DNA of 64,000 nucleotides from a virus: IMG/VR virus record IMGVR_UViG_3300010413_002950, positions 1-64,000 of that record; one strand, written 5' to 3'. Positions 37,103 to 40,289 of this stretch are shown piece by piece. The position numbers were made by a program, and so were the translations under genes. The notes beneath the pieces are model-generated. The model was not told the DNA's origin. It saw nothing but the letters and a program-made list of their open reading frames with translations, and did no database searches. How positions within the stretch are numbered: the first letter of the stretch is position 1; each line of letters starts with the position of its first letter.

Positions 37103-37417
37103 TTACAAGTTAATGAACCTATTAAAGCCACTTAGTAAACACCTATACTGTAATTTTACAATACTAGGCTGATATGGCTTTTCAAATTCTATATCTATAT
37201 AGCCCTTTCTTTTAAGCTCTTTCAATACATCATATAACCCCCTATAGGTATAACCTAGATCTTCGGCTAATTTGCTCATACCTCTAGCTAATTCCTTATC
37301 AGAATAGAGGTGTAGCCGGATCCAAACAGCAAAAGCTGAAGATTTTAGCTCCTTATAGGCTACCTCTATAGTCTTGTGATTGCTTTTAGGGCTGTATTTA
37401 TATTTTACTCTAAGCAT
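37103..37417 (-). CDS. winged-helix DNA-binding protein
   Basis: LAEDLGYTYRGLYDVLKELKRKGYI. Confidence 0.75.
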   Translation of the reverse strand: MLRVKYKYSPKSNHKTIEVAYKELKSSAFAVWIRLHLYSDKELARGMSKLAEDLGYTYRGLYDVLKELKRKGYIDIEFEKPYQPSIVKLQYRCLLSGFNRFINL

Positions 37418-39752
37418 AATTATCCAGTATTTCTATATCGAATTCTTTCTCAGATCGATAAACTGATAGTCTATCTCTAGAGTGCTGAGCAAAATATTTA
37501 TGTGTCATATCTGCAAAATCAACAAACACTGCATCTTTTTTACCTTTACAAAGTGTAAGACATCGTAGCCTCTGGTACGTGGTTTTTATGTTTTTGCCAC
37601 CTTCTGCGTTGATCACACAATCAATTTCTGGGATATCTACGCCCTCAGATAAAACAGTGCCGATAAGCGCAGAGATATGGCCTTTTCTAAAGCTCTCTAT
37701 AATCTCTGCTCTTTTAGGTGCTGGGGTAGCTCCAACAATTCGCTCACAGGAAATAGACGAATTCATCATTTTAAAAAGCGTATCTACTTGCTCCAACCTA
37801 TTGGATACAATTACCACTTTTCTATTTTCAGTCTTGATTAACTTTTCCGTTATATCTGCAATTATCCTATTGCGAATTGGATTGCCCCAGATAGCAGCTT
37901 TAGGCAATTGCTGACTCCACCATTCATCAGATAGATCTGGCTCTCTAATTGGTATGATTAGAAATTTAGGCTTTACAAGATACCCGAGCTGAATTAGCTC
38001 GCTAACTGAAATATCTATAAGGATATCCCCAGCGCAAGCTCTAAGCCAAATAACCCCCAATTCTTCTTCATTAGAATTTTCCAGAAATACTGTAGCAGAA
38101 AGGCCGATTTTGTAAGGAGCTGGACAGTCAAGAAGGATATTTCTCCATGCATCTCCAGAACTAAAATGATGGCAATTATGAACCAGTATTTTATTTGCAA
38201 AATATGTATGTGTGTTTTCTACTTCTAAATTATAGACATAACCGTCTGGACACAATTGTTTAAATTTGTCAGAACTTCTTGATTTGAGAATCTCAACACT
38301 TTCCACCCTTGACCAATTAAGAAATTGTCTTTCCTTCGATCCGCAGCTTTTACCCTTAAAGTATTGTGACTTGAACCGTCTACCTCTATCGCAATTTTTA
38401 ATATTGGGTTCGCAATGTCTATCTTGTAATGACTCGGTAATCCACCCTTTACACCACATTTCGTTGGAAGAATAAATTCCATTTCCCACCCAAGTGTTGT
38501 TGCCAATAGTAGTTGGGGCAGCGTTGGCCCTCTCCCATTTCCACCTTGAATTGGCGGCTTCCATCCATTTATTCTGTGTATTGTAGAAACCTTTGCTCGT
38601 ATTTCTGGTCTTTTCATTGGATTGTTTTTTTTCATTCTTTCTGATGCATATTTCTTGTTTGTTTTTGCCATTGTTTCTGAAGAACGTTTGCTTCGATATG
38701 CTTTTGAACATTCTTTTGAACAATAGGCGTGACCATATCTTCTTAATTGATCTAATTTGCATCCACTTACAAATATTTCTTTTTTGCACCAAAAACAATT
38801 TGTTTTTATTTCTTTTTTCATATGTGGTGTATAGCACCATATCACTGGTTGTCAAATCAATAGCGTTTTTCCAACCTGTTTGTGTAAAAATTGGATGTGT
38901 TGGTGTACAGGTTAGAACTTTATTATCTGTTTTGATTATTACCAATTGTTTGCATTTATTGCGAAAGATGTTGATTACCTTTTGTTTTTCTATTTTTTTT
39001 GTGTTTTCATTATAAGATGTTACATATTCACCAACCTTAATTGATTCTATTGGCCTTTCATCAATTATTGTTCCAGCTGGAAAACATTCATCAACAAGCA
39101 TAAGATCAACATTGTTTATAACATTGTGATATTCTGGCGTATTGCGTTTTGCTAATAGCGTCTGAGCTGTAGAAACGGTTATATCAGATGGTTCCCATAC
39201 TCCATCACCCAATATACCTATTTCTATTTCTAGGGCCTTAGACAATGCTTTCTGGCTTTGGTAGAGTAGCAATTGAGAAGGTACGATGAATAGCGTTCTA
39301 ACCCCTAGCTTTGCAACAATGGCAGAAGCAACCAACGTCTTCCCCCCTCTGGGCGGGATCTTGATAATTCCCCTACCAACAGACTTGCTATACCCATACG
39401 GCTCAGTAGCTAATTCTAGAGCTTCTTGCTGATAAGGCCGTAAGCCAGTAACTTGCTTCAATTCTAGTGTACGTTTAGGATAAACTCGTAGATCCGTCAA
39501 TTGCCATTCAGCTCCATTTTTTTCTATTATGCTAATAATGTTTTCAGCTAATCCAGCTGGAGATTTGAATAGTTTTTCAGATTTGCTATAGGTAATGAGA
39601 TACTTCTTTCCATCCCATCTACCTTCTTGATAAGCTGTTGTATGCTGATAGCCACTTACATAATAGCTGGTTTTTTCTCGCATTTGCCCAAATATAGGAC
39701 CAGGAACATTTCGGATATAAACATAATTGTTGTCTAGCGTTATAGATATCAT
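37410..39752 (-). CDS. SF2 (UvsW/XPB-like) helicase containing an intein
   Basis: LRPYQ, PRGGKT, DE|intein|CHH, SAT, SEGVDIP, QR..R. Confidence 0.92.
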   Translation of the reverse strand: MISITLDNNYVYIRNVPGPIFGQMREKTSYYVSGYQHTTAYQEGRWDGKKYLITYSKSEKLFKSPAGLAENIISIIEKNGAEWQLTDLRVYPKRTLELKQVTGLRPYQQEALELATEPYGYSKSVGRGIIKIPPRGGKTLVASAIVAKLGVRTLFIVPSQLLLYQSQKALSKALEIEIGILGDGVWEPSDITVSTAQTLLAKRNTPEYHNVINNVDLMLVDECFPAGTIIDERPIESIKVGEYVTSYNENTKKIEKQKVINIFRNKCKQLVIIKTDNKVLTCTPTHPIFTQTGWKNAIDLTTSDMVLYTTYEKRNKNKLFLVQKRNICKWMQIRSIKKIWSRLLFKRMFKSISKQTFFRNNGKNKQEICIRKNEKKQSNEKTRNTSKGFYNTQNKWMEAANSRWKWERANAAPTTIGNNTWVGNGIYSSNEMWCKGWITESLQDRHCEPNIKNCDRGRRFKSQYFKGKSCGSKERQFLNWSRVESVEILKSRSSDKFKQLCPDGYVYNLEVENTHTYFANKILVHNCHHFSSGDAWRNILLDCPAPYKIGLSATVFLENSNEEELGVIWLRACAGDILIDISVSELIQLGYLVKPKFLIIPIREPDLSDEWWSQQLPKAAIWGNPIRNRIIADITEKLIKTENRKVVIVSNRLEQVDTLFKMMNSSISCERIVGATPAPKRAEIIESFRKGHISALIGTVLSEGVDIPEIDCVINAEGGKNIKTTYQRLRCLTLCKGKKDAVFVDFADMTHKYFAQHSRDRLSVYRSEKEFDIEILDNYA
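38175..39086 (-). mobile_element. class 1 intein (304 aa) in helicase motif II
   Basis: CFPAGT block A, TPTH block B, VYNLEV..HTYFAN block F, VHN|C block G; excision restores DECHH. Confidence 0.95.
38225..38821 (-). CDS. Vsr/DUF559-like (EDxHD) endonuclease nested out of frame in the intein
   Basis: CFWC..YCSKEC zinc finger, NNPMKRPEIRAKVS motif, YKIDIA..IAIEVDGSSH..D..KD.FL..GWKVLRF; alternative GTG start at 38845. Confidence 0.88.
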   Translation of the reverse strand: MKKEIKTNCFWCKKEIFVSGCKLDQLRRYGHAYCSKECSKAYRSKRSSETMAKTNKKYASERMKKNNPMKRPEIRAKVSTIHRINGWKPPIQGGNGRGPTLPQLLLATTLGWEMEFILPTKCGVKGGLPSHYKIDIANPILKIAIEVDGSSHNTLRVKAADRRKDNFLIGQGWKVLRFSNQEVLTNLNNCVQTVMSII

Positions 39753-39757
39753 GCCAT

Positions 39758-39786
39758 ATAATAAAGCAATTAATATACAATATCAA
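39758..39786 (-). promoter_or_regulatory. sigma70-like promoter for the replication operon
   Basis: TTGATA-17 bp-TATTAT, 5 nt upstream of the helicase ATG, in the module-boundary gap. Confidence 0.55.
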
Positions 39787-39809
39787 CTACTATTTCTAGT
39801 ATAATAGAT

Positions 39810-39823
39810 TTGTAAATTTACAA
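39810..39823. promoter_or_regulatory. perfect 14-bp palindrome (operator candidate)
   Basis: TTGTAAATTTACAA upstream of the promoter. Confidence 0.35.
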
Positions 39824-39833
39824 TTATATGAAA

Positions 39834-40289
39834 TTAGTTAGCGCAGTTGATTGTTGCGCAAAGCTCTTTTTTATCTCTAAGTCGATTCTTATTTATTCGT
39901 CTGATACGGTCACGGGCTAAATCTTTTTTACGTTCACACCCCTTATCCCATTTCTTACATTCTATTTCTTCTACAAGCCTTCTAGCTTCTCTAGATGCTA
40001 TATCTTCATGCTGTCTCTCTTGAACGTCTTGAACAACGATTAATACTTTGCCTATGGTTTCTGTGTTGTTATCAACGTTTTTTGAAAGAGATTCATATTT
40101 AGTATCAGATTCTTTTTGAGCTTTTGAGATCATTTCTTCAGCTTCAGCATAAGAGACTAGCCTAAAGCCAGCATAGCCACCAGTTCCACCAATTAGAATC
40201 ATAAGAAATGTGATTACTACTTTCCAATTCGTTGTTACATGATTTCCGTTTAGCTCAAATATTTTTATTGTCGGTGGAATACTTGCCAT
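39834..40289 (-). CDS. single-TM coiled-coil protein, probable lysis accessory (holin/spanin-like)
   Basis: one N-proximal TM, coiled coil, four Cys; directly after endolysin. Confidence 0.5.
   Translation of the reverse strand: MASIPPTIKIFELNGNHVTTNWKVVITFLMILIGGTGGYAGFRLVSYAEAEEMISKAQKESDTKYESLSKNVDNNTETIGKVLIVVQDVQERQHEDIASREARRLVEEIECKKWDKGCERKKDLARDRIRRINKNRLRDKKELCATINCAN

Follow-up and report, generated by a model that had tools for sequence, protein, structure and literature searches.

A phage helicase intein whose middle is overlapped in the +1 frame by a predicted Vsr-like homing endonuclease gene

The stretch of viral DNA analysed here, IMG/VR record IMGVR_UViG_3300010413_002950, positions 1 to 64,000 (the window), makes up the first 64 kb of one contig of 90,087 bp, and carries on its minus strand a gene for a superfamily 2 (SF2) DNA helicase that is interrupted by an intein. 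We conclude that this intein is very probably one half of a composite selfish element, in which a contiguous class-1 intein sits at motif II of an essential phage helicase and its middle is overlapped in the +1 frame by a complete nuclease gene. A selfish nuclease gene would in this way be carried within a self-splicing intein yet stay distinct from it, cutting and splicing being left to separate products. The evidence comes from the maintenance of both frames, from the recurrence of the same layout in related phages and from signs that the element has moved recently; the stretch itself is present in 20 runs from 7 studies of marine-sediment and related metagenomes, none of them listed as an RNA run. 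The features on which the argument rests are as follows.

37410..39752, minus strand: SF2 (UvsW/ResIII-type) DNA helicase precursor gene, 780 residues, stop codon included (open reading frame (ORF) list and domain matches).
39087..39752, minus strand: N-extein, 222 residues, ending in ...LMLVDE, the first half of helicase motif II (three-frame translation).
38175..39086, minus strand: class-1 intein, 304 residues or 912 nucleotides (nt), between DE and CH in the DECH box of motif II (Intein_splicing match, conserved columns, AlphaFold2 model).
38822..39086, minus strand: N-terminal splicing half of the intein, residues 1-88 with blocks A and B, coding in one frame only (predicted local distance difference test score (pLDDT) 93-98, beta strands; the +1 frame is full of stops here).
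38175..38336, minus strand: C-terminal splicing half of the intein, residues 251-304 with blocks F and G (pLDDT 86-98, conserved columns).
37410..38174, minus strand: C-extein, 254 residues and stop, its first residue the +1 Cys of CHH (Helicase_C at residues 636-728).
38225..38821, minus strand: nested +1-frame gene for a predicted homing endonuclease of 198 residues with a zinc finger and a DUF559/Vsr-like (EDxHD-type) domain, ATG at 38821 and stop at 38225-38227 (DUF559 match, conserved residues, structure model).
38337..38821, minus strand: the part of the overlap in which the helicase frame encodes only a basic disordered linker, intein residues about 89-250 (pLDDT 42-56).
38225..38336, minus strand: about 110 nt in which both frames are folded and conserved, nuclease residues about 162-198 lying over intein residues 251-287 including block F (both models confident; coordinates by hand).

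One stretch of DNA, two frames kept open

The original prediction, made from the letters of the window, described a class-1 intein of 304 residues with its splicing blocks in the DECH box of a helicase, and this description is borne out. The precursor matches ResIII (E 5.3e-18), Helicase_C (E 7.5e-17) and UvsW_N (E 1.4e-5) in Pfam and the DNA helicase family phrog_16 in PHROGs (E 1.4e-70), and the intein matches Intein_splicing at 47.6 bits (cut-off 35.8; E 2e-12). With slashes marking the junctions, the protein reads ...LMLVDE/CFPAGT ... ILVHN/CHHFSS..., and removal of the intein leaves an extein of 476 residues. Block B of inteins carries the motif Thr-x-x-His. Across 56 aligned inteins the block A nucleophile, Cys1 of CFPAGT, is invariant, as are T61 and H64 of block B and the terminal N304, with H303 nearly so; block F is V284-Y285-N286, and the C-terminal ...LVHN is followed by the +1 Cys of CHH. 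Protein splicing of the 304-residue intein is predicted from these features, and the maintenance of a stop-free host frame in an essential helicase gene gives it indirect support.

Translation of 38100-39200 in three frames showed the helicase frame to be open throughout and the third frame to be full of stops, while stops interrupt the +1 frame everywhere except over the nested ORF, the nearest upstream one lying 8 codons from its ATG. This ORF covers intein residues 89-287, beginning 24 residues past the block B histidine and ending within block F; by hand from the coordinates, its stop lies 16 codons upstream of the C-terminal junction, and in relatives in which a pattern located the true junction the nested stop precedes it by 4-18 codons. 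An alternative GTG start at 38845 would extend the ORF to 38225..38845 and the protein to 206 residues. A complete endonuclease in this frame, from either start, had been proposed, and the ORF list, the translation and a match to Pfam DUF559 (E 2.7e-12, 47 bits, cut-off 20.6) agree with that proposal; PF04480 is likewise carried by 120 of 120 nuclease homologues among the matches listed. The N-terminal module has four cysteines (C9, C12, C34 and C38) that are invariant or nearly so in 36 homologues, and in the nuclease core E146 is invariant, while D148, H152 and D161 each occur in 90% or more of the same sequences. All four core residues are kept in the window protein, as is every other residue that is invariant or near-invariant in the 36. 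The domain make-up first assigned needs one correction: the four-cysteine zinc finger and the DUF559/Vsr-like domain with its conserved core are present, but the nested protein has no Pfam match to NUMOD3 at E ≤ 0.1, and the proposed NUMOD3-like segment is dropped.

The predicted structure of the nuclease-frame protein has a mean pLDDT of 90.5, and its C-terminal domain is closest among solved structures to 3R3P, the catalytic domain of I-Bth0305I (E 5.5e-3, probability 1.00, template modelling score 0.60 when normalised to the target), followed by 3HRL and then by 1VSR, the E. coli Vsr protein. Two observations count against too firm an assignment. No Foldseek match of the nuclease model reaches E ≤ 0.001, so that the best, at 5.5e-3, is a modest one, and the best match of the nested protein to a PDB sequence, 3HRL, has an E value of only 0.013.

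Chance is excluded as the source of the open helicase frame. In the null model the nuclease protein was held fixed, synonymous codons were redrawn 20,000 times and stops in the helicase frame were counted, the codons being taken either from the codon usage of the exteins or from a permutation of the ORF's own codons. For the window 20.2 stops are expected under the first scheme and 15.1 under the second, against none observed, and not one of the 20,000 redraws was stop-free under either. The same null gave 0 of 20,000 stop-free redraws in each of 9 loci (the window and 8 others, with 8.5-20 stops expected), locus L005 being left out because its contig is cut. The codon choice of the nuclease gene is therefore constrained to keep the helicase frame open.

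The two frames differ in what they conserve. In all 35 diverged pairs from the 9 loci the third codon position of the nuclease is the most variable (0.50-0.67, against 0.26-0.51 at positions 1 and 2), and amino-acid identity over the overlap is 37-57% in the nuclease frame and 16-34% in the helicase frame. As judged from codon-position variation and identity, the nuclease frame is under purifying selection. For the intein, an AlphaFold2 model built on the 56-sequence alignment is confident and beta-rich at residues 1-90 and 251-304 (pLDDT 86-98), and residues 91-250 have no secondary structure (pLDDT 42-56). Lysine and arginine make up 23% of the linker and 12% of the exteins, in keeping with the original description of the region between blocks B and F as off-frame and rich in these residues. 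Over this linker the helicase frame is selected only for the absence of stops; its residues drift and are predicted to be disordered. The exception is the last ~110 nt of the overlap (38225-38336), where conserved residues occur in both frames, namely D161, K164, G172, W173, R177, F178 and N180 of the nuclease and V261, V284, Y285 and N286 of the intein. The earlier claim of selection on both frames thus stands in the stop-free null and in the codon-position test, and is to be narrowed over the linker, where stop avoidance is all that is seen in the helicase frame. The overlap is a clean natural example of double coding, a single piece of DNA specifying two proteins in different frames.

The same layout across a phage family

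A tblastn search of 50,697 phage records with the nested protein matched 44, of which 4 were examined: Vibrio phage CP-T1 (locus L001, gp10), Corynebacterium phage phi673 (L002, gp43) and, as L003 and L004, Vibrio phages 104E43.1 and 1.088.O. In 4 of 4 the nuclease match lies at offset +1 inside an annotated helicase or hypothetical-protein coding sequence; the intein-bearing helicase is annotated as one plain coding sequence, the region is labelled 'helicase' or 'hypothetical protein', and the nested nuclease gene is unannotated in all of these GenBank records. To this extent genome annotation misses a whole gene family. At the nucleotide level, blastn against phage records recovered only a conserved core of 111-120 nt of the nuclease gene, in 12 Vibrio phage records.

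Nesting in the +1 frame was found in 5 of 5 loci in a first scan of IMG/VR. A second, profile-derived scan yielded 405 stretches encoding a relative, of which the best 80 loci, falling into ~63 clusters at ~90% identity, were analysed. The frame to which the nuclease is +1 is stop-free over the whole match in 79 of these 80, and in every locus stops interrupt both the third frame and each of the three antisense frames. Where both junctions could be found by pattern (77 host ORFs; 2 of 79 without one junction by pattern were left out of the count), 72 show DE/C on the N-terminal side and HN or SN followed by C or S on the C-terminal side, and six atypical hosts that were checked are all SF2 or SNF2 helicases. 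Taken together, these comparisons indicate that +1 nesting is the rule in a large phage family, most of it unannotated.

Two loci depart from the standard layout. In L029:3355-5623 the nuclease gene is free-standing, encodes 214 residues behind a good Shine-Dalgarno (SD) site and shares about 30 nt with the start of the gene for an intein-less DEAH helicase; its would-be host frame contains 27 stops. A free-standing homing nuclease that sits next to its target would be expected to look like this, and because such a relative adjoins an intein-less helicase it is plausible that the nested form arose when a free-standing nuclease invaded a mini-intein. L044:2808-5068 has the standard layout together with one indel that shifts both genes; its ORF passes from the N-extein and N-terminal intein half into the nuclease and ends there, as the indel explains. 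Among other loci, L008/L026:1242-4877 contains a helicase ORF of 1212 residues with apparently two inteins, the first, picked out by eye in the translated sequence, inserted just past the P-loop GSGK and the second a +1-nested Vsr-like one at motif II. The giant ORFs of L061:2-7351 and L089:2-5164 (at least 2450 and 1721 residues, cut at the start of the locus) have SNF2-related domains and the same nested intein, with junctions HN/CYK or HN/CFK, and L061 has in addition an Eco57I-type methylase domain. In run X5, a contig of 5678 nt (record 22) matches only 38274-38309 and 38585-38650 of the nested gene, the stretch between them being of equal length and diverged, and probably represents a further family member, carried by another phage in that sediment. 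A relative at 93% identity also occurs among the contigs of run X5.

A search for relatives in other ARRANGEMENTS, made among longer proteins, gave 10 matches, and for 6 of them a precomputed list of Pfam domains shows both a UvrD-type helicase and Intein_splicing. DUF559 is also listed for five of the six (P0123-P0125, P0128 and P0129) and not for P0130. In P0123 and P0124, metagenomic UvrD-type helicases of superfamily 1, DUF559 lies in frame inside the Intein_splicing envelope, the intein being at motif II and the nuclease core lacking the zinc-finger N-terminal part; in the consulted portions of the related literature we found no mention of an in-frame Vsr-like intein nuclease. The other four, P0122, P0126, P0127 and P0131, run from an N-extein and N-terminal intein half into the nuclease frame, and we read them as frameshifted or fractured forms. 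In P0131, which stands for 7 member sequences, and in P0122 the ORF stops within the nuclease frame, and P0131 might represent genuine gene fracture, its nuclease being joined to the N-terminal half of the intein. One nuclease family therefore offers a free-standing form (L029), forms fused to an N-terminal intein half (P0131, P0122) and forms in frame in UvrD inteins (P0123, P0124), and on it the sequence of events that gives an intein its homing domain becomes directly testable. We put forward only tentatively, as the less probable side of the question, that the nested Vsr-like nuclease and the helicase intein form one composite element of single origin, which would have reached motif II in the SF2 and SNF2 helicases of phages with widely differing hosts (Vibrio, Corynebacterium, marine sediment, jumbo phages) and would be a stable alternative end-state to gene fracture and not a passing accident. 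On the same tentative footing, the basic wrong-frame loop might have been co-opted, for example for DNA tethering or for the timing of splicing.

Recent movement of the element and putative expression of the nuclease

The original prediction took the element to be a recent arrival, and comparison with related contigs is in accord with this. An independent IMG/VR contig, locus L010 (L005 is the same contig), is identical to the window at 822 of 823 intein positions (99.9%) in one alignment block, and at only 567 of 664 N-extein positions (85.4%) and 86.7% of the upstream DNA. Mismatches in the N-extein number 9-13 per 50 nt far from the intein and fall to 6, 4, 3 and 2 over the last 200 nt, the last of them 51 nt from the junction; this is a co-conversion gradient. 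Run X3, from another study, contains a contig of 1064 nt that spans the intein and both junctions with 2 differences and no gaps, and adjoining extein contigs with 51 differences in 822 places and 58 in 725. A second contig of this run, of 152 nt, has the same end points (38092 and 39155) and skips 946 nt, carrying 34 other letters there; the net loss of 912 nt equals the intein in length to the letter. A translation by hand gives DELHH for this empty allele, in place of the DE/CHH of the window's exteins. The near-identity of the intein in backbones ~15% apart, the co-conversion gradient and the co-resident intein-less allele together support recent movement of the intein. The gradient and the empty allele also give indirect support to cleavage in homing, and the nested protein may be a site-specific homing endonuclease that cuts the intein-less allele.

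Base composition had been cited to the same end, and the counts agree: AGCT occurs twice in the 912 nt of the intein, 7 times in the 765 nt of the C-extein and 9 times in the 666 nt of the N-extein, which ranks the intein with the 1% of 912-nt windows that have the fewest AGCT in the genome of 90,087 bp. In the genome as a whole AGCT is found 1056 times, 3.6-fold more often than the 295 that base composition predicts. TCGA, ACGT and CGCG reach only 0.24-0.34 of their expected numbers and TTAA only 0.51, and the intein is one of few AGCT-poor stretches.

Some of the population evidence tells against this reading or is open to another. The empty contig is short (152 nt), has a depth of 3.3 and was matched at a likeness threshold of 85%, and for these reasons could come from a related co-resident phage rather than from the same population. 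Among 48 elements with long enough exteins and a DEC junction, nuclease and intein distances correlate with each other at a Spearman r of 0.20 and with extein distances at 0.24-0.29, a test in which distances are saturated and all r lie at 0.12-0.29 except for 0.54 between the two extein halves. Close relatives of the exteins, sought in IMG/VR for empty alleles, amounted to only 3 loci at 25-27% identity. The combination of near-identical inteins, diverged backbones, a gradient and an empty allele is the particular value of the window, and makes it a good candidate for testing out-of-frame homing.

As to how the nuclease is made, the least certain step of the account, the original prediction left translation from a start of its own and frameshifting side by side, and comparison across the family bears on the choice. 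An ATG lies just upstream of the first CxxC of the zinc finger in 58 of 61 cluster representatives (2 of 63 were unscored, L044 being without the CxxC and L050 without a start before it), and SD-like pairing of -4 kcal/mol or stronger precedes 49% of these starts, compared with 24% of positions in the background (Mann-Whitney p 2e-4). In several relatives the SD site is of textbook quality, and the free-standing nuclease of L029 starts as the nested ones do. Given the conserved ATG and the SD enrichment in relatives, separate internal initiation is favoured. The window itself is less accommodating, and here several points run counter to our interpretation. As the original prediction had observed, no strong SD is present: the site before the nested ATG is weak and far from it, at -2.8 kcal/mol against a median of -4.1 for the gene starts of this phage, whose genes do use SD sites (pairing of at least -4 strength in 52% of them and in 11% of the background). 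The translated nested product and its start site are both putative. A hairpin with a 5-bp stem before the ATG is marginal (z -2.04; 9 of 200 shuffles fold as well), and the likeness of sequence there among some relatives is explained by the conserved intein residues that the region encodes. One further element lies upstream of the start.

38827..38855, minus strand: promoter-like TTGACA, 16-nt spacer and TG-n-TATACA, ending 6 nt before the nested ATG (weak, unproven).

This site has a perfect -35 hexamer and a -10 element that is TG-extended but imperfect, without the final T, and its bases also encode conserved intein residues. A consensus promoter scan does not call it, the scan giving 6 sites in 38000-40000 against 7.5 expected and none at the nested start. 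The pattern of TTGACA, 16-18 nt and TGn-TAnnnn occurs once in the genome, at the nested start only, so that no family of such promoters was found. An embedded promoter before the nested ATG is a weak possibility.

Two other accounts of the overlap concern the frame itself. An assembly or sequencing artefact could in principle have hidden an ordinary in-frame nuclease domain behind two compensating indels, and homopolymer runs such as a T8 inside the region, together with the in-frame DUF559 inteins of P0123 and P0124, lend this some colour. However, a stop bounds the +1 frame at either end, one of them 8 codons upstream of the ATG and the other within block F, so that no pair of indels gives one clean frame without leaving some 200 stop-free off-frame codons to be explained. 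The original prediction had also proposed a check of the reads for compensating indels; independent contigs of three other runs have no inserted or missing letters anywhere in the helicase gene, and the IMG/VR contig aligns over the intein in one block with a single mismatch. The same offset recurs in 79 of 80 loci. On these grounds sequencing error is excluded, and the artefact, refuted at the contig level, has a negligible probability. Programmed +1 ribosomal frameshifting, by which the nuclease would be made within the helicase/intein polypeptide, draws on the poor SD before the nested ATG and on the four called proteins that join an N-extein and N-terminal intein half to the nuclease frame. 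We consider it highly improbable. Only 8 codons separate the upstream +1-frame stop from the ATG in the window, the ATG before the zinc finger is kept in nearly all representatives with SD-like sequences enriched before it, and the free-standing gene of L029 encodes the same complete protein. Moreover, P0126 and P0127 switch frame part-way through the overlap and L044 has its single indel, and all three read as indels and not as a conserved slip site; no slippery site was seen in passing, no search having been aimed at one. Frameshifting, of the two routes originally entertained, is thus disfavoured and separate initiation retained.

It is also conceivable that the nested gene is a relic, the intein still splicing but the nuclease no longer made or active and the element inherited vertically. 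Weak initiation signals would fit such a state, and the published homing cycle predicts decay of this kind (bioRxiv 10.1101/2025.01.02.630785). Against it stand the retention of every invariant and near-invariant residue and the confident fold of the nuclease, and the gradient, the shared intein and the co-resident empty allele, which speak for very recent movement; a relic is in our view decidedly unlikely.

The composite element, which remains the preferred reading, might work as follows. The helicase mRNA would be translated straight through the region of the nuclease gene, giving a wrong-frame stretch of ~160 residues that forms a stop-free, basic, disordered loop where canonical inteins carry a nuclease domain. 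The two Hint halves would associate and splice out the 304 residues to leave a 476-residue helicase. The nuclease would be a separate product, initiated internally at the ATG at 38821 and probably made in small amounts, and would cut intein-less helicase alleles at or near motif II. In co-infection, repair from an intein-bearing genome would then copy the intein, the nested gene and some of the flanking extein.

Relation to known inteins and nested nucleases

The original prediction implied that the arrangement was new. This does not hold, because inteins with out-of-frame nucleases are in print as a kind and the nested state is usual in a large phage family; the value of the window is that of a well-documented member and variant, and not that of the discovery of a principle. 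The general layout is already in print, and the nuclease family, the combination of strand and frame and the host gene differ from the printed cases. We found no printed report of a sense-strand, +1-frame Vsr-like/DUF559 nuclease in a helicase intein, although the supplementary tables of Gosselin et al. and Gorbalenya 1998, which lay outside the search, might list one.

The founding EDxHD homing endonuclease, I-Bth0305I, resides in a group I intron of a phage recA gene (Taylor et al. 2011, PMC3239194; structure 3R3P). The nested protein has a comparable core with conserved acidic residues and a conserved histidine, but the I-Bth0305I gene is intron-borne, identity in the structural alignment is 19% and the match lies above E 0.001. 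A hidden HNH endonuclease gene has been described out of frame in a phage methylase (Arsenault et al. 2025, PMC11855218), and this case resembles ours in having an out-of-frame nuclease gene within an open host ORF and no clear ribosome-binding site; it differs in that no intein is involved and the nuclease is of the HNH type.

A closer parallel in nuclease type is provided by fractured genes, in which a free-standing Vsr-like or GIY-YIG gene lies between the halves of a split intein (Dassa et al. 2009, PMC2677866). As in the window, Vsr-like nucleases there lie on the same strand, between intein halves and in phage replication genes, and the 3' end of the nuclease gene runs over the C-terminal intein half in another frame, by 6-69 bp in fractured genes and by ~110 nt here. 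In fractured genes, however, the host is divided into two ORFs, a stop and 27-51 nt of non-coding DNA precede the nuclease gene and splicing is in trans, whereas the helicase frame of the window is unbroken through the nuclease gene in a single ORF of 780 residues. That single ORF rules out a fractured gene with split-intein halves in two ORFs as a description of the window, as does the open frame over the match for 79 of the 80 relatives.

The actinophage inteins of Gosselin, Arsenault and Gogarten (2025, bioRxiv 10.1101/2025.01.02.630785) carry antisense LAGLIDADG, antisense Vsr-like and frame-3 endonuclease VII-like nucleases, in genes for DNA polymerase, minor capsid protein, terminase and thymidylate synthase. 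Their authors state that Vsr-like nucleases are otherwise known only with split inteins, and infer invasion of the intein by a free-standing nuclease with continued lateral spread. These inteins and the present one have in common a contiguous intein that is open in the host frame and has an out-of-frame nuclease of a free-standing type between its splicing blocks. Their Vsr-like nuclease is antisense and their sense-strand case is endonuclease VII-like in frame 3, whereas here a Vsr-like/DUF559 nuclease is encoded on the sense strand, in the +1 frame, at motif II of an SF2 helicase.

Phillips, DeSimone and Gogarten (2026, bioRxiv 10.64898/2026.09.14.751524) report an out-of-frame LAGLIDADG nuclease in a cyanobacterial dnaX intein, for which they credit Gorbalenya 1998. 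The dnaX intein and that of the window share overlapping frames on the sense strand, purifying selection on the nuclease frame with relaxed residues in the host frame, and the coexistence of intein-bearing and intein-less alleles in one population. They are set apart by the LAGLIDADG nuclease, the dnaX gene, the +2 frame and the cellular host of the former. Phillips et al. call the layout a rarity; in the viral family described here it is the majority state of hundreds of loci.

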